The notes: a model not told the origin generated them from the sequence alone. A stretch of 64,000 bases of DNA from Paludibacteraceae bacterium (GCA_017551025.1 JAFZNG010000021.1:12908-76907), one strand, 5' to 3'; counted from the stretch's first letter, positions 40,178 through 53,408 are shown. Numbers and translations: made by a program.

Positions 40178-40723
40178 ATGAAGATTATAGGTATCACATA
40201 TCTGGGCGGAACAGCACAAATGGTGCTGAAAGGCGACTCGTCGTTGCTGAACGGAAAGAAGCCCTTCTTCATGCCCGACAATACCGCCGATATACGAGCC
40301 CTGCCGGCTATTATCCTGCGGGTAAGCCGCCTGGGCAAACATATCGAAGAGCGCTTTGCCTCGCGCTACTACGATGCCGTAGCGCCCGGACTGGACCTGA
40401 TAGCCTATGACCGGCTACAAGACGCACAATCCAAAGGGCTTAGTTGGACAGAGGCCACGTGTTTTGACTACTCGATGCCCATAGGCGAATGGGCAGAAGA
40501 GCAAGCGCAATACGAATGGACGATTGACAATCAGCCCTGGGCCGTAGGCGAACTATGCTGCACCCCCGAGCAGGCCATCGCACGTATCAGCCGACTGATG
40601 ACCATCCGGCAAGGTGACCTTATTTATATCGCTGCGGCGCAAGCGCCTACCCCGCTTCGACGCGAACGAGTATTGCGTGCCGGCGAGGGCGAAAGAGAAT
40701 TATTATATTGCAAGATTAAATGA
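40178..40723 (+). CDS. Fumarylacetoacetate hydrolase-family-like protein (weak assignment)
   Basis: 181 aa starting MKIIGITYLGG...KKPFFMPDNT... The track start at 40157 lies in the -7 box. The stop overlaps the porU start as ATGA. Confidence 0.45.
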   Translation: MKIIGITYLGGTAQMVLKGDSSLLNGKKPFFMPDNTADIRALPAIILRVSRLGKHIEERFASRYYDAVAPGLDLIAYDRLQDAQSKGLSWTEATCFDYSMPIGEWAEEQAQYEWTIDNQPWAVGELCCTPEQAIARISRLMTIRQGDLIYIAAAQAPTPLRRERVLRAGEGERELLYCKIK

Positions 40724-43700
40724 AGCGACTGCTGAACATATTGCTAGCGTTATGCCTCACGATAAGTGCGGTAAGAGCCGGTGTACACTCGTATACCGAC
40801 AACTCCGTGCTGAAGACCGGACACTGGGTAAAGATCCAGGTAAGCAGTAGTGGTGTGTGCCGCATGCGATTCGACCAGTTGCGCGATGCCGGTATTGAGC
40901 CGACACAGTTGCGCGTATACGGTTACGGCGGCGCAATGCTGAACCAGGATTTCTCGAAGCGCAAGATAGACGACCTGCCACAAGTGCCGGTCTATACGGG
41001 TGAAGACTATGTACTGTTCTACGTACAGGGCCCGATCAGTTGGACCTACCAGAACAGCCGTTTTGTGCACAGCAAGAACATCTACTCGAACTACGGTTAT
41101 TATTTCTTGACTGACAACGTAGGCAGTCACCTGGAATTGACGCCCGCGGAAGCCCTGACGGGTACGCCCAAGGACGTATATACGTATCAAAATGTCCAGG
41201 TACATGAGTTGGACTCAATCAACCTGGTGGATAAGAGTGGCGTCTCGGGAGGCGGCAAGACCTTCTACGGCGAGCAGTTCACCACCAATCAATCGCGGAC
41301 CTTCCGCTTCGCAACGCCGAATGCAGTAACGAGTGGTAAGAGTTCGGTCTATGTCGACCTGGCCGCCTATGCCACGACGCCGAGCACGTTCCGCGCCGCC
41401 TTGAATGGTAACGAAAACAAGACCGTATCCATCACGGCGCCTTCGACCAGCGACCACTACACCTTCGGTGTGCGCAACGCGATAAGTATGACAGGTACGA
41501 GCGCAAGCACTCAACAGCAAATACAGTTGACCTTCCAGAACACGACGGCCTCCGGCGCACTGGGTTGGCTAAACTATATCGAAGTGCAGACCCCTTGTTC
41601 GCTACGCATGAACGGCGACTGGATGATGATACGCAGCACCGAGAACCTTGGCTCATCGACGCCGATACGTTTCCACCTAGAGAACGCCACCGCCGCTACC
41701 CAAATATGGGATGTGACCAACCGGGCTGCCATCCAGCGCATCCCTGCTACGCTCAACGGTACGGAACTGACATGGATCGGCACCAACCGCGACGATATAC
41801 ATGAATATATCGCAGTAAACACAACGGGTTCGTCGTACGTGAGCGCCACAACGATAGGCGAGGTCAGCAACCAGAACCTGCACCGTCTGCGCAACACAGA
41901 CTATGTCATCATCTGTCCGAACGGATATGAGGCCGAGGCGCAACGCCTGGCACAAGCCCACGAACAGAAACAAGGTATCACTTGGGCCGTCGTGACCGAC
42001 CAACAGGTATATAACGAGTTCTCGTCCGGTACGCCGGATGCTACGGCCTACAGATGGCTCATGAAGATGCTATACGACCGCGCCAACAACGGTGACGGCC
42101 AAAAGCCACGCTGGTTGCTACTCATGGGTCACGGCTCGTTTGACAATAGGAATATTTGCGTAGATCCCCAAACAGGCGTCTCCTATTCCGGCAGCAAACT
42201 GTTGCTCACCTATCAGGCCAACAACTCGCTCAACGAAGTGCAGGCCTATGCTACCGACGACTATTTCGGATGGCTCGATGATAACGAGGGTACGAGTGAC
42301 AATCTCGCCCGCATGGATGTCGGTGTAGGACGACTGCCGGTGGAGAGCGTGGAAGAGGCCACGACAACAGTAGACAAACTGATTCGGTACATGCAAAACA
42401 TGGAGCCCGGCAAATGGAAAAACCAGTTGGTATACCTGGCCGATGACGGCGACGGAGGCGATCATACGAAAACCGCAGAGGGAAGTGCGGAAGAGGTACG
42501 TGTACAGAACCCCGACTTCGTAGTGCACAAGGTTTACCTGGATGCTTATCCGCAGGAGACGAATGCCTCGGGCGAGAGTTATCCCTTGGCCAAGAACAGG
42601 ATACAGAATCTGCTGAAGAACGGTGTGCTCTTCTTCGACTATTCGGGTCACGGAGGCTATAACGGCGTGACAAGTGAGTCGGTACTGCTTCGTGCGGATA
42701 TCGACAAGATGAACAACAAGAATCTGGGATTCTGGTTCTTTGCAACGTGTAACTTTGCCCAGTTTGACGGTGGACGTCGTTGTGCCGCCGAGGCTGCCAT
42801 GCTGAATCCGAACGGAGGAGCGGTAGGCGTATTTGCCGCTACGCGTACGGTATATGCTGACCAGAACACGAAGCTGAACCGCGCGGTGACAAACCAACTA
42901 TTCAAGCACTCGGACACCTTCCACTACGAGGCTACGCTGGGCGAAGCCATCATGGAGGGCAAGAACAAACTGAGCGATGACAACAAACTAGCCTACGTAC
43001 TGCTGGGCGACCCGGCGATACGCCTGAACTACCCGACCGACTACTGGGTAGAGACCCTCACAGAAATAGATACGCTGAACGCACTGAGTATACAGCAGGT
43101 AGAAGGACGAATCATCGATGAAGACAGCACGCTGGTGAGCGATTTCAACGGTACGCTGGATATCACTATCTACGATAAGATGCAAGTCATCACCACCCGC
43201 GATAACGACGACAAGACGGGAGAGCCGACCGAAATACCGTATAACGACTACCCGAACACGATCTATACAGGTTCGACCACCGTAACGGACGGACAATTTA
43301 CGTACACCTTCATGGTACCGAAAGACATCCGCTACAACTACGGCCATGGACGTATCGTCTATTATGCACACGACGACACGTACAACCTGGATGCCGTAGG
43401 TCACTCGGAGCAATTGATCATCGGCGGCACAAGCAACATCGTATGTGCGGACACTACGGGTCCGGAGATGAACATTTACCTGAACAGTACTGCTTTCCGC
43501 GATGGCGACCATACCTACCCCACACCGCGCTTCTTTGCCGACCTCCAAGACGAGAACGGCATCAACACCGCGGGTGCCGGTATCGGACACGACCTGATGC
43601 TCATCATCGACAACGACCCGAAACAGACCTATACAGTCAATGACTACTTCACCTCGGCGAACAGCAGTTACCGTGCCGGCCAAGTGAGCTATCTGCTCTC

Positions 43701-44091
43701 CGCCCTACCGGACGGTCCGCACAGCCTGAGTTTCCGTGCATGGGACCTTCTGAACAACAGCACAACGAAGAGTCTGAACTTCGTAGTAGAATCCGGACTC
43801 GATCCGTCGATCTATTCCGTAACAACCTATCCCAATCCCGTGCATCAGTCGGGCGTCATGACGATGGCCGTACTGTATGACCAGCCGGATGAGTTGCTCA
43901 CGACCGATGTATATATCTACAACCTGAGCGGCCAAATGATCTGGCACCACACACAAGACAATCCCGATCAACTGCAAATCAACCTGGGCGAACTGGGCAT
44001 GCAGCCGGGCGTATATGTCTATAGCATACGTATCAAATCCGCCACGAGCAAGTATAGTACCTGCTCGGGCAAGATCATAGTCACCAAGTGA
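40720..44091 (+). CDS. porU: Type IX secretion system sortase PorU (C25-like peptidase)
   Basis: 1123 aa with a signal peptide, the N-terminal LKTGHWVKIQV..GVCRM block, a gingipain-like core, a C-terminal CTD-like end, and porV immediately downstream. Confidence 0.8.
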   Translation: MKRLLNILLALCLTISAVRAGVHSYTDNSVLKTGHWVKIQVSSSGVCRMRFDQLRDAGIEPTQLRVYGYGGAMLNQDFSKRKIDDLPQVPVYTGEDYVLFYVQGPISWTYQNSRFVHSKNIYSNYGYYFLTDNVGSHLELTPAEALTGTPKDVYTYQNVQVHELDSINLVDKSGVSGGGKTFYGEQFTTNQSRTFRFATPNAVTSGKSSVYVDLAAYATTPSTFRAALNGNENKTVSITAPSTSDHYTFGVRNAISMTGTSASTQQQIQLTFQNTTASGALGWLNYIEVQTPCSLRMNGDWMMIRSTENLGSSTPIRFHLENATAATQIWDVTNRAAIQRIPATLNGTELTWIGTNRDDIHEYIAVNTTGSSYVSATTIGEVSNQNLHRLRNTDYVIICPNGYEAEAQRLAQAHEQKQGITWAVVTDQQVYNEFSSGTPDATAYRWLMKMLYDRANNGDGQKPRWLLLMGHGSFDNRNICVDPQTGVSYSGSKLLLTYQANNSLNEVQAYATDDYFGWLDDNEGTSDNLARMDVGVGRLPVESVEEATTTVDKLIRYMQNMEPGKWKNQLVYLADDGDGGDHTKTAEGSAEEVRVQNPDFVVHKVYLDAYPQETNASGESYPLAKNRIQNLLKNGVLFFDYSGHGGYNGVTSESVLLRADIDKMNNKNLGFWFFATCNFAQFDGGRRCAAEAAMLNPNGGAVGVFAATRTVYADQNTKLNRAVTNQLFKHSDTFHYEATLGEAIMEGKNKLSDDNKLAYVLLGDPAIRLNYPTDYWVETLTEIDTLNALSIQQVEGRIIDEDSTLVSDFNGTLDITIYDKMQVITTRDNDDKTGEPTEIPYNDYPNTIYTGSTTVTDGQFTYTFMVPKDIRYNYGHGRIVYYAHDDTYNLDAVGHSEQLIIGGTSNIVCADTTGPEMNIYLNSTAFRDGDHTYPTPRFFADLQDENGINTAGAGIGHDLMLIIDNDPKQTYTVNDYFTSANSSYRAGQVSYLLSALPDGPHSLSFRAWDLLNNSTTKSLNFVVESGLDPSIYSVTTYPNPVHQSGVMTMAVLYDQPDELLTTDVYIYNLSGQMIWHHTQDNPDQLQINLGELGMQPGVYVYSIRIKSATSKYSTCSGKIIVTK

Positions 44092-44124
44092 ATTGATAAT
44101 TGAAAATTGATAATTGAAAATTAT
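44091..44124. repeat. Tandem 14-mer ATTGATAATTGAAA x2
   Basis: Lies between porU and porV. Confidence 0.85.
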
Positions 44125-44191
44125 GCCTATGAAGCATTTTTAAGTGGATTTTTTTAATAAGACAAATAATAATCAAAAAATAAACAACACA

Positions 44192-45388
44192 ATGAAAAGA
44201 ATTATTTTATCTCTCGCAGCCGTCCTGTGTATCGGTATGAGTGCATGGGCGGTGGACGAAACGATGAACCCGCTGATCACATCGATGCCGTCGCTCTCTA
44301 TCGCCCCTGATGCCCGTGCAGCAGGTATGGGTGACCTGGGTGTAGCGACGCAGTCGGACTACAACGCGCAGTACTGGAACCCTGCCAAGTATGCATACAA
44401 TAGCAGCAAGGGAGCCATCAATGCCAGCTACACGCCGTGGTTGCGCAAACTGGTGTCGGATATCGATCTGGCATATATCGCAGGATTCTACAACTTCGGT
44501 GACCTGGCCGGTGGTATCGGTGCAAGCTTCACGTACTTCTCGCTGGGTGATGTAGCGCTGACGAATGCCAGTGGTGACAAGATCCAGGATGTACGTCCCA
44601 ACGAGTGGGCACTGGACCTGAGCTACTACCGCAAGTTGCACGAGTACGTTTCGATGGCCGTAGCCGTTCGCTTTATGTACAGCGACCTGAATAACGGTTC
44701 GAACAGTTCGATAAGTGGCGGTACGGAGATGTATCCGGCATGGACGATGGCCGCTGATGTTTCGCTCTACTATCGTCAGCCGATCGACCTGAAGATGGGA
44801 ACCAGTTATTTTGCTTTAGGTTTCAGTCTGAAGAATCTGGGTGGTAAGATGACCTACGACAAGGTGACGCAGAATTTCATTCCTGCCAGCCTGAATATCG
44901 GTGCCAGCTACGAGTTGCCGTTCGACAAGTACAACTCGTTAACCTTTAACGTAGAGGCTAACAAATTGATGGTTCCTAGCCGCAAATCGCGCTATACGGA
45001 AGGTTTTAACGCAAACGACGAGAAGACCTGGCAAATGTCGCAGGATGCTTACTCGGAACTGAACTCGGCCAAGGGTTGGTTCCAGTCGTTCAACGATGCT
45101 CCTGGCGGTGCCGCAGAGGAGTTTAAAGAGGTACGTTGGGGTGCCGGTCTGGAATACACCTACAATAAGCAGTTCTTTGCACGTGCCGGTTATAGCTACG
45201 AGAACTACTACAAAGGTAACCGTAACTATGTGACGCTGGGTGCTGGTTTCCACCTCTCGATCGTCAGTCTGGACTTTGCCTACTGTGTAGGTCTGGCCGC
45301 ATCGAACCCGCTTGACCAAACGATGCGATTCACGCTTGGCTTCGACCTAGCCGGTATCAAAGACCTGGTGGATAACAAGAAGAAATAA
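44192..45388 (+). CDS. porV: Type IX secretion outer-membrane shuttle protein PorV (LptO)
   Basis: Signal peptide MKRIILSLAAVLCIGMSAWA, then PSLSIAPDARAAGMGDLGVAT and a beta-barrel. The track start at 44144 is a GTG. Confidence 0.85.
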   Translation: MKRIILSLAAVLCIGMSAWAVDETMNPLITSMPSLSIAPDARAAGMGDLGVATQSDYNAQYWNPAKYAYNSSKGAINASYTPWLRKLVSDIDLAYIAGFYNFGDLAGGIGASFTYFSLGDVALTNASGDKIQDVRPNEWALDLSYYRKLHEYVSMAVAVRFMYSDLNNGSNSSISGGTEMYPAWTMAADVSLYYRQPIDLKMGTSYFALGFSLKNLGGKMTYDKVTQNFIPASLNIGASYELPFDKYNSLTFNVEANKLMVPSRKSRYTEGFNANDEKTWQMSQDAYSELNSAKGWFQSFNDAPGGAAEEFKEVRWGAGLEYTYNKQFFARAGYSYENYYKGNRNYVTLGAGFHLSIVSLDFAYCVGLAASNPLDQTMRFTLGFDLAGIKDLVDNKKK

Positions 45389-47896: not shown

Positions 47897-49362
47897 TAGT
47901 CTTCGTTTTCCATTTTCTGTTCGAGCTCCTCAAGTTGTTTCTTGAGTGCATCGATTTTCTTCTGCATATCATCCACCAGCTTGTTGGCTGTCTTGGACTT
48001 TGCGGTAAAGAAGAGGATATTGTTCTCGGCCGTTTTGATCTCCTGTTGCAGACGGTCGTGCATGCGACGCAGTCCTTCAGCACCTTGGCTGGCAGCCGCC
48101 TTGACAGCTCGTGCAGCACGCTCTTTGCGGTTCTCGTCGCGCGATTCCTTCATAGCCTCGCGACGTGCGTTAAAGAAACTATCGCAGGTCTCATTGAATC
48201 GTTTCCACAGTTCGTCGCTGTACTTACGTGCCACAGGACCTATCTGTTTCCACTCCTTTTGCAAGTCCATGAGTTTGTCGCTTGTCTCGCGCCAATCCTG
48301 GCTATCCTTTAGCGCTTCAGCCTGCTCGATGAGGGCACGTTTACGCTTGAGATTCTCGTTGAGTTCATCGCGAAGTCCTTTATAGAAAGCCGTCTTGGCC
48401 TGGAAGAAGCCATCGCACAAGGCACGATATTCCTCGTAGATGGTCTGATTCTGCTTCTTAGGAGCAAAACCTATGGTACGCCACTCGTTCTGGAGAGCCT
48501 GAACTTGCTCGGTCATAGCATCCCACTGCTTATTCTGCTTCAGTTCTGAGAAATCGAGCGCCTTGAGTTGGTCAATGATAGCTTGCTTGCGCTCCAGATT
48601 CTCTTGCTCCTTCTTGTGCAATTCGTCAAAATACGCTTGGTGCTTCTTATTAATAATCGTAGAAGCCGCCTTAAAGCGATTCCACAGGTCTTCGCGCAGT
48701 TCACGCGCTACCGGACCAATCTCAGCCCATTCATCGTGGAGTTGCTGCAAAGCACGACTGGCTTCAATGACCGATGGATTCTCCTGCAGTTTTTCTGCGG
48801 CTTCACAGAGCAGGGTCTTCATCTCAAGATTTTTCTTGAAATCCAGATCACGCAACTCAATATTGATTTTTACCAGATCGTAGAACTGTTCCTGGTATTG
48901 CTGGTATTGCTTCCAGATCTCCTGCACTTTCGGAGCCGGTACTTGACCGATCTCTTTCCACTGCGCTTGCAACTCACGCATGCGCTTGAGATTGTCCATA
49001 ACATCGGCGCATTCGGCCTCTGCCAACTGCTTCATTTCCTTGAGGATCTCTTGCTTGCGCTCGAGATTAGCTTGCTGCTCAGCTTCCAAACGGGCCGTAG
49101 CCTCCTGGCGCAACTTCTTATATTGTGCTAACAACTCACGAAACTCCTGCTCCTGTTCATCCACAGGCGGTTGCCATGTTTCCAGCACCTCACCGGCTGC
49201 CTCAGCCGCCTGCTGGGCCTGTTGACGCAGGGTCTCCAGTTCCTGGTGATACTGACGATAAAACTGGTTTTTCAACTGTTCTACCTGCTCCTTGAGAGCA
49301 GTGCTGTCCTGTTCGAGTAGAGCCTTAAGCTCATCGATAAGTTGTTGCTTTTCGTTTGCCAT
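47896..49362 (-). CDS. DUF349-family coiled-coil protein
   Basis: Repeated units of the form W..IG.V.......LW.RF. The ATG at 49362 (MANEKQQLIDELK) sits downstream of the -7 box, so the track's longer N-terminus is rejected. Confidence 0.7.
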   Translation of the reverse strand: MANEKQQLIDELKALLEQDSTALKEQVEQLKNQFYRQYHQELETLRQQAQQAAEAAGEVLETWQPPVDEQEQEFRELLAQYKKLRQEATARLEAEQQANLERKQEILKEMKQLAEAECADVMDNLKRMRELQAQWKEIGQVPAPKVQEIWKQYQQYQEQFYDLVKINIELRDLDFKKNLEMKTLLCEAAEKLQENPSVIEASRALQQLHDEWAEIGPVARELREDLWNRFKAASTIINKKHQAYFDELHKKEQENLERKQAIIDQLKALDFSELKQNKQWDAMTEQVQALQNEWRTIGFAPKKQNQTIYEEYRALCDGFFQAKTAFYKGLRDELNENLKRKRALIEQAEALKDSQDWRETSDKLMDLQKEWKQIGPVARKYSDELWKRFNETCDSFFNARREAMKESRDENRKERAARAVKAAASQGAEGLRRMHDRLQQEIKTAENNILFFTAKSKTANKLVDDMQKKIDALKKQLEELEQKMENED

Positions 49363-49436: not shown

Positions 49437-49468
49437 CTTGCGTATATCGAATATTTTTTCTACCTTTG
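49437..49468 (+). promoter_or_regulatory. -33/-7 promoter for the trypsin-like protease gene
   Basis: cTTGcgtatatcgaatattttttcTACCTTTG. Confidence 0.55.
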
Positions 49469-49489
49469 TGCTCAAAATTCGAGAATACT

Positions 49490-50986
49490 ATGAAAAAGCG
49501 TTTCTTTTTACTGCTTACCATGTTGAGTGTAAGTATGTCTTGTTTGCTGGCTGACGACTGGACCGGAACGGGTTGGGCCCTCAAGGACGGCTATGTAGTA
49601 ACCAATCATCACGTAGTAGAGAATGCCAACAGTATCGTACTGAAGTTTCAACGCGGCGGTCGGCTCTTTGAATACGATGCCGAAGTGGTTGCCGTAGATG
49701 CTGAGCATGATGTCGCATTGATACATATCACAGCGTCATCGTTCCCTGGTTTCGGTGAGATACCCTATGCCGTAAAGACTGATCTGGCCGATGTAGGCGA
49801 ATCGGTATTCGTACTGGGTTATCCGCTCACAGACACCATGGGAGACGAGATCAAGTTGACCACGGGTATTATCTCTTCGCACTCCGGATACCAAGGCGAC
49901 CAATCCCTTTATCAGATATCCGCGCCGGTACAACCGGGCAACAGCGGTGGTCCGCTATTTGATGACAAAGGTAATGTAATAGGTATCGTGTGCGCTATGC
50001 ACATGCGCGCGGAGAACGCCAATTATGCCGTAAAAGCATCCTATTTAGCCGATTTGGTACGTCGTCAGTTGGGTAGCGTAGCAATCCTGCCGACAGCGAA
50101 CCGTCTGGAGCAGTTGAGTCTGCCGGAAAAGGTTAAGAAAGTGAAAGAGTTGGTATGTTATATCCAATGCTCCACGCGGCATAATCGTCCGAATCCCTCC
50201 AATGGTTCGGATATGCCTTCCGCCCCTCACAATAACCCGCCACAAACCACACCTTCCCGCCCAACACAACCGCAACAGACTTTGCCGCAAGGTCCGCTGG
50301 GCGAGGGTATCAGTTCGGGATTTGGCAGCAATACCGGTTCCGGAAGCGAATCGGGGAGCTCTTCAGATAGTGAAGGTCGTGCTTTCATAAGAGAATGTAT
50401 CACCCAGTGGGGTGAATGCCGCAACGTAGCCATCACCGAAACTAACGGCGATCTAGCCATCCATGGACGAAACGGTTGGGCCGGCACGGGATTGCCCGAG
50501 CGGTTGTCTAACGCGCTTACTGAATTGAACGAGGATAACAAATACATTTCTGATGTGCAGCTCACCGAGCAAGGCAATTGGATCATACTATACGGCAACA
50601 ACGGTTTCCGCTGGTCGGGTATCCCGAAATCGCTAGAAGATAAAATACGCGAATATAACGCAAATTATGAGGAGGTTACATCGGTTACGTTCAACGACTC
50701 GGGCGACTGGATTGTGATCACAACAGAGCACTATGCTTCGTCTGATGCACGTATCACAGCCTGGCTCAAAGAGGGTGCGGCCGAATACGGCATACTTTGG
50801 GCGGCATGTATCACAGAGCGAGGCATGGTAGCATGCTACGAGAAGGGGTACAAGTTCTTCGGCGAAGTGCCATCGGAACTGCGAAGCCGCTTGCGTGAAA
50901 CCGACTTTGACGTATATCGTATCAAGATTGCCGGTGAGAGTTATTTCTTCGCAGATAAAGAAGGACACTATCATTACAAGATGTAA
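49490..50986 (+). CDS. Exported trypsin-like (S1) serine protease with a low-complexity linker and an unrecognised repeat-containing C-terminal domain
   Basis: Signal peptide, then VVTNHHVV (His), DVALI (Asp) and GNSGGPLF (Ser). A P/Q/S/G-rich linker and about four repeats of roughly 45 aa follow. Confidence 0.75.
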   Translation: MKKRFFLLLTMLSVSMSCLLADDWTGTGWALKDGYVVTNHHVVENANSIVLKFQRGGRLFEYDAEVVAVDAEHDVALIHITASSFPGFGEIPYAVKTDLADVGESVFVLGYPLTDTMGDEIKLTTGIISSHSGYQGDQSLYQISAPVQPGNSGGPLFDDKGNVIGIVCAMHMRAENANYAVKASYLADLVRRQLGSVAILPTANRLEQLSLPEKVKKVKELVCYIQCSTRHNRPNPSNGSDMPSAPHNNPPQTTPSRPTQPQQTLPQGPLGEGISSGFGSNTGSGSESGSSSDSEGRAFIRECITQWGECRNVAITETNGDLAIHGRNGWAGTGLPERLSNALTELNEDNKYISDVQLTEQGNWIILYGNNGFRWSGIPKSLEDKIREYNANYEEVTSVTFNDSGDWIVITTEHYASSDARITAWLKEGAAEYGILWAACITERGMVACYEKGYKFFGEVPSELRSRLRETDFDVYRIKIAGESYFFADKEGHYHYKM

Positions 50987-51029
50987 TTCGAACTAATTTA
51001 CACTTTTTTCTTAAAAAATCGCACAAAAA

Positions 51030-51061
51030 TTTGCAGCAATGAGATTTTTTTTGTAATTTTG
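51030..51061 (+). promoter_or_regulatory. -33/-7 promoter for the caspase-like gene
   Basis: TTTGCAgcaatgagattttttttgTAATTTTG. Confidence 0.55.
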
Positions 51062-51083
51062 TCGCGATTTTTATACAAAAGGT

Positions 51084-51944
51084 ATGAAACGTCTAGTAAT
51101 CCTTGGTCTTCTGATGACGCTTGTGTTGGGTATGCAAGCGGCTACGAAGCGCGCTCTGGTGATAGGTATCGGTCCGTATCCCGCTTCGAGCGGATGGGCT
51201 CGCATCAACGGAGACAAAGATATTCCGGTAGTAGAAAAACTGCTGCAGGCTAACGGTTTTCAGCAGAAAAACATCTATACGCTGTGTAACGAGCAAGCAA
51301 CATTTTCCGCCATTTGCAATCAAATGGAGAAGATCATCTCAATTGCGCAACCAGGTGATTTCCTGTATATTCAATTCTCAGGACACGGTCAGCAGATTAC
51401 CGACCGTAACGGCGATGAGCCGGATGGCTACGACGAAGCCTGGGTGCCTTATGATGCGCCGATGCAGTATACCAAAGGCGTTTATGAAGGAGAACGCCAT
51501 ATTACCGATGATCGGTTGAACGGCTGGTTGCATCGCATGCGCAAACGTGTTGGAGAAAGCGGCAAAATCATCGTAGTAGCAGACGCCTGTCATAGCGGTG
51601 ACGGTACGCGAGGCCCGGCTGAAGAAGAGGCTGCGCAACATTTGGTCATTCGTGGCACTTCCGATAAATTTATCATTCCGGGTGCGTCCCAGCAAGCGCA
51701 ACGCCAGAGTTTCCCGATTGAGTGGATCAGTATCAGTGCATGCAAACCTTACCAATGCAATTACGAGTACAACGGAATGGGTTCGCTCACCTATGCACTC
51801 TATCAGGAGAGAGAGCGCCTCTCTACCCTAACCGGTAAGCAACTGCATCAAAGTATCCGACAAAGTATACAACGTGTCATCCCTCAGACCCAGACCCCTG
51901 TGGTCGACATGACGGACGACGATAGAGATAATCGCATTTTTTAA
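51084..51944 (+). CDS. Exported caspase-family (C14) peptidase / orthocaspase
   Basis: Signal peptide, KRALVIGIG, catalytic His in YIQFSGHG, DGYDEAWVPYD, and catalytic Cys in VVADACHSG. Confidence 0.8.
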   Translation: MKRLVILGLLMTLVLGMQAATKRALVIGIGPYPASSGWARINGDKDIPVVEKLLQANGFQQKNIYTLCNEQATFSAICNQMEKIISIAQPGDFLYIQFSGHGQQITDRNGDEPDGYDEAWVPYDAPMQYTKGVYEGERHITDDRLNGWLHRMRKRVGESGKIIVVADACHSGDGTRGPAEEEAAQHLVIRGTSDKFIIPGASQQAQRQSFPIEWISISACKPYQCNYEYNGMGSLTYALYQERERLSTLTGKQLHQSIRQSIQRVIPQTQTPVVDMTDDDRDNRIF

Positions 51945-51991
51945 AAATGTTGAAACAACCAATTTATTAACCCCAAAAAACAATTACGAGC

Positions 51992-52732
51992 ATGAAAAAA
52001 GTATTATTTGCTGTCATTGCGCTGAGCGCAATCCTGGTTTCTTGCAACAAGAAATGTTGTGGCAACTGCCATCCTGAGAACGACACCGTTGCAGTATCGG
52101 AAGAGAAAGCCGAAGCACAAGGTGAGTTGAGCGAAGGCCTCGAGGCTATCCGTATTGCTATGGATCTGGCACAATACGGTTACCGTGTTGAGTCGGCTGA
52201 CGCCCTGATCAAGGCTGCTGACATTTTGGCTTCTACTCCCAAGGTAGACATGCCTGAGGAGCAAGTAGCAGAGAAGAACAACCCGGAGGCTAAGGTTGAG
52301 GACAAAGACAACGACAAAGGCGAGATCACAGCCGAGAAACTGATTGCAGACGCTAAGGAAATGGCCGGCGACGACGCTCATTTGTTGGCAATGGCTGCTG
52401 ACGTTGAAAAGAAGATCGCTGCTGCATCGGAGAGCACTCGCGGTGCCGTTAACGGTCCGATCGAGCACTACGATCGCATCCTGGCTCGCGACTATGACCT
52501 GTACTACATTCCTTTCCGCGCAGGTGAGATTGCAGAGGTAGCAGTTATCGGCGACGGTGACACCGACCTGGATCTCTACGTTTATGATGCTAACGGCAAC
52601 CTGATCGTTTCTGACACGAGCTACAGCGGCAACTGCTATGTAAGCTTCCTGCCCTACGTAACCAGCAATTTCACGATCAAGATCGTTAACCGCGGCAACG
52701 TTTACAACAACTACGTACTGTTGACCAACTAA
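51992..52732 (+). CDS. Lipoprotein with an acidic helical N-terminal half and a PPC (pre-peptidase C-terminal)-like beta domain
   Basis: Lipobox ILVSC. The C-terminal region is DYDLYYIPFRAGEIAEVAVIGDGDTDLDLYVYDANGNLIVSD...FTIKIVN. Confidence 0.6.
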   Translation: MKKVLFAVIALSAILVSCNKKCCGNCHPENDTVAVSEEKAEAQGELSEGLEAIRIAMDLAQYGYRVESADALIKAADILASTPKVDMPEEQVAEKNNPEAKVEDKDNDKGEITAEKLIADAKEMAGDDAHLLAMAADVEKKIAAASESTRGAVNGPIEHYDRILARDYDLYYIPFRAGEIAEVAVIGDGDTDLDLYVYDANGNLIVSDTSYSGNCYVSFLPYVTSNFTIKIVNRGNVYNNYVLLTN

Positions 52733-52766
52733 ATTCTTGCGGCTTAGCCGCCGGAAAGAATAAAAG

Positions 52767-52795
52767 GAGTCGGCCTAATGGGTCGACTCTTTTTG
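52767..52795. terminator. Bidirectional terminator hairpin
   Basis: GAGTCG-loop-CGACTC followed by TTTTT. It overlaps the stop of the convergent 196-aa gene. Confidence 0.65.
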
Positions 52796-53353
52796 TATTT
52801 GTTTATATTCCGTTTCGCTTATCTGTTCGGCTTCATAAGCATCATAGGCCGTAGGAAGCATAGCTACCTGTACCGTCAATCGCTGGTACCATCGTTGCCA
52901 CTCCGCATCAAATTTGCCCAGGAGGAATGCAACATCTTTTCGCGCCGCATATAATGTCTGCAACGAATCCCGCATTCGTTCGCCGCAGGCTTGCATCTCT
53001 GCCAGCCTACATTCCGCCGGTTCGCGAAAACGCACCGCATCAATCTTCTGCTGCCAGTGATAGCAGGTCTGCTCGGCCAGCCGACACAATTGTCTGCACA
53101 GCACGTCTTTATCCATAGGCACTTCCGTTGTCGAGTCCGTTTGCGCCGGCGAAACCACGACCGTAGTATCACCCGGCACAACGGTCGTCTCGGACGACGA
53201 CTGGACAACTACAACCTGACGCTGAAGATCCAGCGTAGCCGAATGACGGGTAATACGTCCGCGATGCTCCAGGTAGTACTCACCGCCAAGCGCAAGCGCC
53301 ATCAGCACCAACGCACCCACAACAATGGCAATATAACGTCCGTTTTCTTCCAT
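52775..53353 (-). CDS. Single-pass membrane protein, unknown function
   Basis: TM segment YIAIVVGALVLMALALGG, a T/V/S-rich spacer and a Cys-containing helical domain. The start is the ATG at 53353 or at 53365. Confidence 0.5.
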   Translation of the reverse strand: MEENGRYIAIVVGALVLMALALGGEYYLEHRGRITRHSATLDLQRQVVVVQSSSETTVVPGDTTVVVSPAQTDSTTEVPMDKDVLCRQLCRLAEQTCYHWQQKIDAVRFREPAECRLAEMQACGERMRDSLQTLYAARKDVAFLLGKFDAEWQRWYQRLTVQVAMLPTAYDAYEAEQISETEYKQIQKESTH

Positions 53354-53408
53354 TTTCGGGCACAAAATTACAACATTTTTTGCAAATTTGCAATTTTATT
53401 TGCATAAT

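Follow-up and report, generated by a model that had tools for sequence, protein, structure and literature searches.

Most of what is known about bacterial caspase-fold proteases comes from defence systems of the cytoplasm and from the orthocaspases of cyanobacteria, and to our knowledge almost nothing has been established about their roles outside the cytoplasm. Here, we describe a locus on a 64,000-nucleotide (nt) stretch of DNA from a Paludibacteraceae bacterium (GCA_017551025.1, JAFZNG010000021.1:12908-76907; the whole stretch is hereafter called the window, and positions are counted from its first letter), in which the genes for an S1 (trypsin-like) protease, a C14 (caspase-family) orthocaspase and a lipoprotein with a beta-sandwich resembling the pre-peptidase C-terminal (PPC) domain lie side by side. 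This trio is a reduced member of a gene cluster that is widespread in Bacteroidota, and the reading favoured here, at a probability of roughly 0.6, is that the three genes constitute one functional unit, a reduced Bacteroidota cluster for regulated extracytoplasmic proteolysis. As a case for study, the cluster is small, recurs often and can be put to the test, with at least 280 loci in species-representative genomes, including those of gut and rumen Prevotella, Bacteroides and Paraprevotella.

The closest characterised analogue is DdvA/DdvS of Myxococcus xanthus. The anti-sigma factor DdvA spans the membrane, and its periplasmic TPR-CHAT domain was proposed to cleave the linker of DdvA itself ahead of RseP; DdvA-like proteins have been reported only in Myxococcota and one Comamonas (PMC11506125). 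The Bacteroidota clusters share with DdvA/DdvS a periplasmic caspase-fold protease with TPR that is coupled to a dedicated pair of extracytoplasmic function (ECF) sigma and anti-sigma factors, as well as a proposed site-1 protease cut in the juxtamembrane linker, with intramembrane proteolysis to follow. However, the CHAT and C14 proteins of Bacteroidota are separate secreted proteins that are not fused to the anti-sigma factor, DdvA/DdvS lacks the S1 protease and the PPC-like lipoprotein of these clusters, and the window locus itself contains no sigma, anti-sigma or CHAT gene. By analogy, the window cluster may act in a similar way without being a member of the DdvA/DdvS system.

The two proteases of the trio also have characterised relatives. 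The orthocaspase shares the caspase/haemoglobinase fold signature, the His-Cys dyad and acidic S1-pocket residues with orthocaspases and metacaspases such as GSU0716 (3bij) and Yca1 (4f6o), but differs from them in its signal peptide, in its minimal size with neither a prodomain nor extra domains, and in sharing its operon with the genes for an S1 protease and a lipoprotein. The S1 protease domain is closest to those of DegP, DegQ, DegS and MarP, and its triad is intact, whereas the protein has no PDZ domain and continues instead through a Pro-rich hinge into a four-repeat, propeller-like domain. DegS is the classic site-1 protease of an anti-sigma factor. Membership of the window protein in the HtrA, DegS or MarP families was rejected, as all such models scored far under their cut-offs and a PDZ domain is lacking.

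A pairing of caspase-fold and trypsin-fold proteases also occurs in the conflict systems described by Kaur et al. in 2020, in which caspase/trypsin effectors are centred on cytoplasmic NTPases (PMC7159879); neither a signal peptide nor CHAT is mentioned in the text of that paper. Variable sensor-like domains and a patchy distribution are further common features, but all parts of the window locus are predicted to be exported, whereas those systems are cytoplasmic. The first-pass annotation of the window, made from the sequence alone, had pointed out that no NTPase accompanies the trio, and indeed no STAND, MoxR-vWA or GTPase protein was found among the window neighbours or the 25 commonest neighbour clusters of 80 lipoprotein loci (the Pfam scan covered six of the seven recurrent clusters not already identified). 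Assignment to the NCBIfam family caspase_w_EACC1 was likewise rejected (25.8 bits against a cut-off of 140), and no effector-associated adaptor domain is present. The text of the ECF reclassification (PMC7826278) does not mention caspase or CHAT for the genomic surroundings of any of the ECF groups. A description of the cluster was found neither in the full-text literature searched nor in PMC7159879, PMC7826278 and PMC11854122, in keeping with the earlier impression that no described system matches the locus.

Linkage of the three genes across Bacteroidota

The genes for the S1 protease (49490-50986; 498 amino acids (aa) from MKKRFF), the orthocaspase (51084-51944; 286 aa) and the lipoprotein (51992-52732; 246 aa) were confirmed as neighbouring open reading frames (ORFs) on the + strand, separated by gaps of 97 nt (S1-C14) and 47 nt (C14-lipoprotein), as had been described for the latter gap before. 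An export or lipoprotein signal, which had been claimed for every one of the three proteins, was also recognised when their N-termini were read by eye. The start given earlier for the locus (49437) falls in the promoter region and had to be moved to the S1 start codon at 49490, and a longer S1 ORF beginning at 49292 was dismissed as upstream read-through.

The lipoprotein family was found at 280 loci in species-representative genomes, 80 of which were fetched and counted, with neighbour families detected by hidden Markov models (HMMs) built from neighbour clusters. TPR-CHAT genes occur in 59 of these 80 loci, C14 genes in 44, S1 genes in 32, ECF sigma genes in 20 and genes for anti-sigma-like proteins in 19. 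Of the 29 loci that extend for at least ~8 kb on both flanks, 28 encode CHAT and 17 encode C14. The strand of the lipoprotein gene holds 280 of the 292 family matches. All three members of the trio are found together in 23/80 loci, almost without exception on a common strand and in many cases as immediate neighbours, under the labels Paludibacteraceae, Prevotella, Paraprevotella, Bacteroides and Bacteroidaceae. The lipoprotein gene lies no more than 150 nt from the C14 gene in 23 of 44 loci and from the S1 gene in 22 of 32. Among 401 evenly sampled Bacteroidales genomes, 45 encode the C14 subfamily, 10 the lipoprotein and 7 both (odds ratio 21.7; Fisher's p 1.3e-5). This neighbourhood check, which the first-pass annotation had called for, supports a co-conservation of the three genes well above chance level, and it is very probable that they form a genuine linked module. 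With regard to the CHAT partner, this 1.94-Mb genome has four Pfam-level CHAT genes; a random 20-kb segment would rarely contain one.

The same counts correct the earlier view that the trio is the whole system, since TPR-CHAT is the commonest partner of the lipoprotein and many loci add an ECF sigma/anti-sigma pair. In Paraprevotella (L062) and Prevotella (L089), a tight seven-gene operon encodes the S1 protease (here composed of MORN repeats and trypsin), the lipoprotein, TPR and CHAT proteins, C14, the sigma factor and the anti-sigma factor; its gaps in Paraprevotella range from a few to ~25 nt, and two of the genes overlap. The gene order of such fuller versions is S1-lipoprotein-CHAT-CHAT-C14-sigma-anti-sigma. 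One to three secreted TPR-CHAT proteases per locus are found in the full cluster. Among eight C14-anchored loci, the sigma factor is encoded in seven, the anti-sigma factor in six, and CHAT nearby in most. The sigma-like protein has no Pfam match; its profile matches SigW (4.5e-9) and TIGR02937 is found in 18/18 members, which indicates that it is a true, divergent ECF sigma factor. The anti-sigma-like protein (230-270 aa) has one transmembrane (TM) segment, a short TPR-like ectodomain and an N-terminal helix that appears anti-sigma-like by eye. An invariant Arg, usually followed by Gly, is located ~25 residues outside the membrane in these proteins (for example, L062 12952-13677 and L119 7354-8109) and is a candidate protease site.

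In a sister variant of the cluster, CHAT is kept, but some other parts give way to a 490-aa protein without a name, to an FHA-like-TM-trypsin protein and to a pseudokinase-TM protein. One such cluster is present in the genome under study (G000:C30:14096-28962, - strand); it encodes two TPR proteins, a 1196-aa and a 772-aa CHAT protein, an unnamed protein of 490 aa, an FHA-like-TM-trypsin protein and a pseudokinase-TM protein whose C-terminus is a beta domain. This gene set is met again next to lipoprotein-family genes in 9-11 of the 80 loci.

The reduced state of the window trio is apparent from its closest relative, Paludibacteraceae RGIG5934, which has the same flanks and the order S1-CHAT-C14-lipoprotein-membrane protein, with identities of 76% for S1, 68% for C14, 55% for the lipoprotein and 43% for the membrane protein. 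The 97-nt S1-C14 spacer of the window is homologous to the CHAT-C14 spacer of this relative, and the CHAT ORF is thus cleanly absent from the window. Four CHAT proteins are encoded elsewhere in the genome, one of them in the sister-variant copy at C30:14096-20226. Genus members without the trio carry unrelated genes 5′ of DUF349, which places the trio at a synteny break, and most of them also lack the MMPL gene; a clean insertion (empty) site was sought in vain, as the relatives show the break instead.

Protein components and conserved Arg-Gly motifs

The orthocaspase is recognised by Pfam Peptidase_C14 with 63 bits (4e-17; cut-off 21.4). Its dyad, which had been read as intact before, withstands alignment to the metacaspases, His101 (FSGHG) and Cys169 (DACHSG) being matched with the YSGHG and DSCHSG motifs of Yca1 (4f6o) and GSU0716 (3bij). 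The catalytic Cys is present in 43/43 C14 homologues, and the His column of FSGHG is invariant in an eight-sequence alignment, as are Asp44 and Asp167. The latter two are taken, through the alignment, to stand at the acidic S1-pocket positions of metacaspase structures, and because of them we infer that the enzyme cuts after Arg or Lys. Caspase-fold enzymes are usually processed in the region just after the catalytic Cys, and conserved Arg176 and Arg190-Gly191 stand C-terminal to this residue in the window protein. An Arg at +7 from the catalytic Cys is found in 38/43 homologues, and a second site, Arg-Gly, stands ~20 residues past the Cys (Arg in 40/43, Gly in 41/43). A genome profile search with Pfam PF00656 missed the window's own C14 protein, for which hmmscan gives the 63 bits, and negatives obtained by that route are uninformative.

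Many homologues of the C14 subfamily (L116-L123) are 570-750 aa long, and three of five that were scanned have a weak DUF4384-like C-terminal beta domain; in other lineages, the protease may thus carry as a fusion the beta-sandwich that is here contributed by a lipoprotein of its own. In two loci of the same genus, a small secreted protein with an Arg-rich, highly basic tail is encoded between the C14 and CHAT genes (L013 7202-7723 and L014 8912-9337), for which no family match was obtained.

The signal peptide of the lipoprotein ends, on the basis of a pattern reading only, in the lipobox LVS-C18, in which Ser17 and Cys18 are invariant in eight homologues. Its AlphaFold2 model (predicted local distance difference test (pLDDT) 82, predicted TM-score (pTM) 0.74) consists of a disordered tether, four helices with an acidic/Lys-rich loop at aa 82-113, and an eight-strand beta-sandwich at aa 157-245. 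The PPC domain assigned to this protein in the first-pass annotation holds at the level of the fold and fails at that of the sequence: the score against Pfam PPC PF04151 lies under the cut-off (15.9 vs 25.9 bits, E=0.025), whereas Foldseek relates the beta-sandwich (pLDDT >90) to the C-terminal jelly-roll of Tk-SP subtilisin (3afg, E 2e-7), with further matches to the collagen-binding domain of ColH (3jqw), GOLD domains and a PPC domain of B. anthracis (5sv5). A precomputed PF04151 match exists for the homologue cluster P0036, which represents the second copy of the lipoprotein in this genome (G000:C18). Arg150-Gly151 is located in the nine-residue linker between the helical and beta domains, and this pair is conserved in the family (Arg in 73/77 and Gly in 75/77 lipoproteins). 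The family comprises at least 1018 cluster representatives, all of which are unnamed.

Only in the window copy is the lipobox followed at once by a segment rich in Cys (CNKKCCGNCH; 51992-52060), which its homologues lack. The second paralogue, which is 53% identical (G000:C18:119791-120510; L027 9292-10011, - strand), lies 16 nt 5′ of a gene whose product of 458 aa has a TIR domain at its N-terminus (TIR_2, 4e-14; L027 7899-9275). Past the TIR gene is an array of small unannotated ORFs, and a secreted WG-repeat protein is encoded nearby.

In the S1 protein, a signal peptide precedes the protease domain (~aa 25-230), which is joined through a Pro/Gln/Ser/Gly linker (~aa 235-295) to a C-terminal domain (50360-50983, + strand; 208 aa). 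The protease domain matches Pfam Trypsin_2 PF13365 with 101.3 bits (1e-28; cut-off 27.6), no PDZ domain was detected in the protein with Pfam or NCBIfam, and proper alignment to the DegP-like structure 5y28 confirms the His/Asp/Ser triad reported earlier, which resides in TNHHV, EHDVALI and GNSGGP. The AlphaFold2 model of the C-terminal domain (pLDDT 93, pTM 0.89) shows an N-terminal helix and four repeats, each of three strands and a helix. No close fold was found for it in the PDB, where the best TM score (~0.43) was obtained with propellers such as BLIP-II and UVR8, and in the model it looks like a small propeller. It belongs to an unnamed family with 722 cluster representatives. Stand-alone secreted copies of ~230 aa, with 56-65% identity to the window copy, occur across distant Bacteroidota, and fusions of the domain to trypsin, to a transglutaminase core or to FGE-sulfatase are found as well. 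The gene for a stand-alone copy adjoins the lipoprotein gene in two loci (L092 and L086) and stands immediately 5′ of a trypsin gene in a third (L124). Moreover, the domain attached to S1 differs by locus: some proteins have the four-blade domain, some have MORN repeats, and some a beta domain of another kind. These variable domains and the TPR arrays of the CHAT proteins look like recognition modules.

Proposed mechanism and alternative explanations

A mechanism can be put forward in which the orthocaspase would cleave after Arg, like metacaspases, mature itself at its own conserved Arg-Gly sites, and act on the tethered lipoprotein at the Arg-Gly interdomain linker. The lipoprotein might accordingly serve as a substrate, a tether or a pseudosubstrate regulator, and the S1 protease would be directed to its target by the propeller-like C-terminal domain. 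In the full versions of the cluster, the same chemistry could make the site-1 cut of the anti-sigma factor at the juxtamembrane Arg, upon which the sigma factor would be released. In the genome studied here, the output might be the proteolysis as such, or the trio might cross-talk with the four CHAT proteins for which genes exist elsewhere. A relay of cleavages specifically at Arg-Gly is a tentative proposal that we consider less likely than not, and a cascade or zymogen activation between S1 and C14 is conjecture; gene linkage, domain identities, catalytic residues and conserved motifs are what the sequences show, while localisation, who cleaves whom and the biological trigger are parts of the scheme that we infer. 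The most far-reaching version, which is rather unlikely, takes the lipoprotein as the mark of a hitherto undescribed pathway across Bacteroidota for signalling or immunity outside the cytoplasm, a C14/TPR-CHAT/S1 relay that would cut Arg-Gly linkers; the caspase would act as site-1 protease in an ECF sigma switch, and the trio would be the minimal sigma-less form. If the relay is true, it would extend the one studied CHAT-coupled ECF switch, that of Myxococcus DdvA, to a dominant gut phylum, and would provide functions for two large unnamed families, those of the lipoprotein and of the four-repeat domain of S1.

Several points weigh against one functional unit with this output. The relatives counted are non-independent, so the counts and the p value overstate the statistical support. 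The link is loose on the C14 side, with the lipoprotein present in just 7/45 C14 genomes, while S1 is missing from most lipoprotein loci and is, among the three, the partner most readily dispensed with. A search of the whole genome with the family HMMs (E<1e-4) found no sigma/anti-sigma pair of the cluster family, and consequently the signalling output of the full versions cannot apply here as such. In addition, the Arg-Gly motifs may be structural instead of cleavage sites.

A different purpose for much the same mechanism would be a cell-envelope conflict or immune system, in which the TPR, propeller or MORN domains would recognise a periplasmic protein of an invader, be it of phage origin, a contact-dependent toxin or a type VI effector, whereupon the caspase-fold proteases would degrade that protein or set off a response. 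We regard this as possible, if distinctly less than probable. The spread of the genes is patchy, as C14 occurs in 4/24 other genomes of the genus and the lipoprotein in 6/201 genomes of the family, including this one; such patchiness, however, would suit accessory signalling modules as well. The position at a synteny break, the locus-to-locus variation of the S1 recognition domain and the sister variant with its FHA-TM-trypsin and pseudokinase are in line with immunity, as are the TIR-domain gene beside the second lipoprotein paralogue and the control of a defence island by the analogue DdvA/DdvS (PMC11506125). On the other hand, the window trio neither contains nor adjoins a known defence gene, a nuclease or an NTPase, and the locus is not flanked by phage or mobile-element genes. 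The protease domains do match PADLOC defence models at the domain level (RT-protease, LmuA, Avs1b and 'caspase'), but these matches were set aside because they concern generic protease domains around which no defence system is assembled.

It is also conceivable, though improbable, that the trio consists of ordinary secreted digestive proteases and a PPC-type binding lipoprotein used for peptide harvest by a gut anaerobe, in which case the genes would be co-regulated neighbours whose products do not act on one another. Bacteroidota export many proteases, export signals are present on all three proteins, and PPC domains are typical of secreted degradative proteases, as reflected in the subtilisin and collagenase matches. 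Nevertheless, the proteins carry no type IX secretion system C-terminal domain, the conserved neighbourhood includes no SusC/SusD or peptide-transport partner, and the distribution is sparse. The persistent partners, TPR-CHAT and ECF sigma/anti-sigma, form a regulatory architecture, and the caspase-fold enzymes of family C14 are site-specific processors, not bulk degraders. Chance adjacency of three unrelated exported proteins, which would fit a region that varies among genus members and families that are each also met without the others, is very hard to reconcile with the joint presence of all three in 23/80 lipoprotein loci from several Bacteroidales families, on one strand and with short gaps, with the odds ratio of 21.7 for C14 and the lipoprotein, and with the order and spacing kept in syntenic relatives; we give it almost no credence. 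The reading of the trio as one unit for regulated extracytoplasmic proteolysis remains the favoured one.

Transcription signals and neighbouring genes

The promoter -7 consensus of Bacteroides is TAnnTTTG, and a box of this type, TACCTTTG, is located at 49461-49468 (+ strand), 22 nt 5′ of the S1 start codon, as judged from a pattern match by eye. Promoter-like motifs recognised in the same manner 5′ of the C14 gene (51030-51061, + strand) are TTTG at 51030-51033 and TAATTTTG at 51054-51061, the latter being a -7-like motif that is also 22 nt from the start codon. The trio is closed by a terminator-like hairpin with a 17-bp stem and a T-tract (52760-52796, + strand), which is common to the convergent gene. 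Nothing as strong was found inside the trio in a terminator scan of the + strand, where the sole other match was a 7-pair stem at 52016-52032 that falls within the start of the lipoprotein gene. The three genes are probably transcribed together, ending at one terminator.

The convergent gene (52775-53365, - strand) encodes a single-pass membrane protein of 196 aa. It had been counted as the member that closes the locus, but is present in only 3/80 lipoprotein loci, all from close relatives, and is better regarded as a lineage-specific neighbour. The protein matches no Pfam, NCBIfam or PADLOC family. It was considered as an anti-sigma factor and rejected, as it has ~10 cytoplasmic residues and no family match, and occurs in near relatives only.

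Housekeeping and transport genes make up the upstream flank (DUF349, an FtsE-like ATPase, SufE and AroK), while an MMPL transporter and a TonB-dependent receptor are encoded downstream. Two further upstream ORFs (40720-45388) look like PorU and PorV by eye, and related contigs carry Paludibacteraceae and ruminant-gut labels. Together, the flanks, the PorU/PorV-like ORFs and the labels of the relatives point to a type-IX-secreting Bacteroidales genome.

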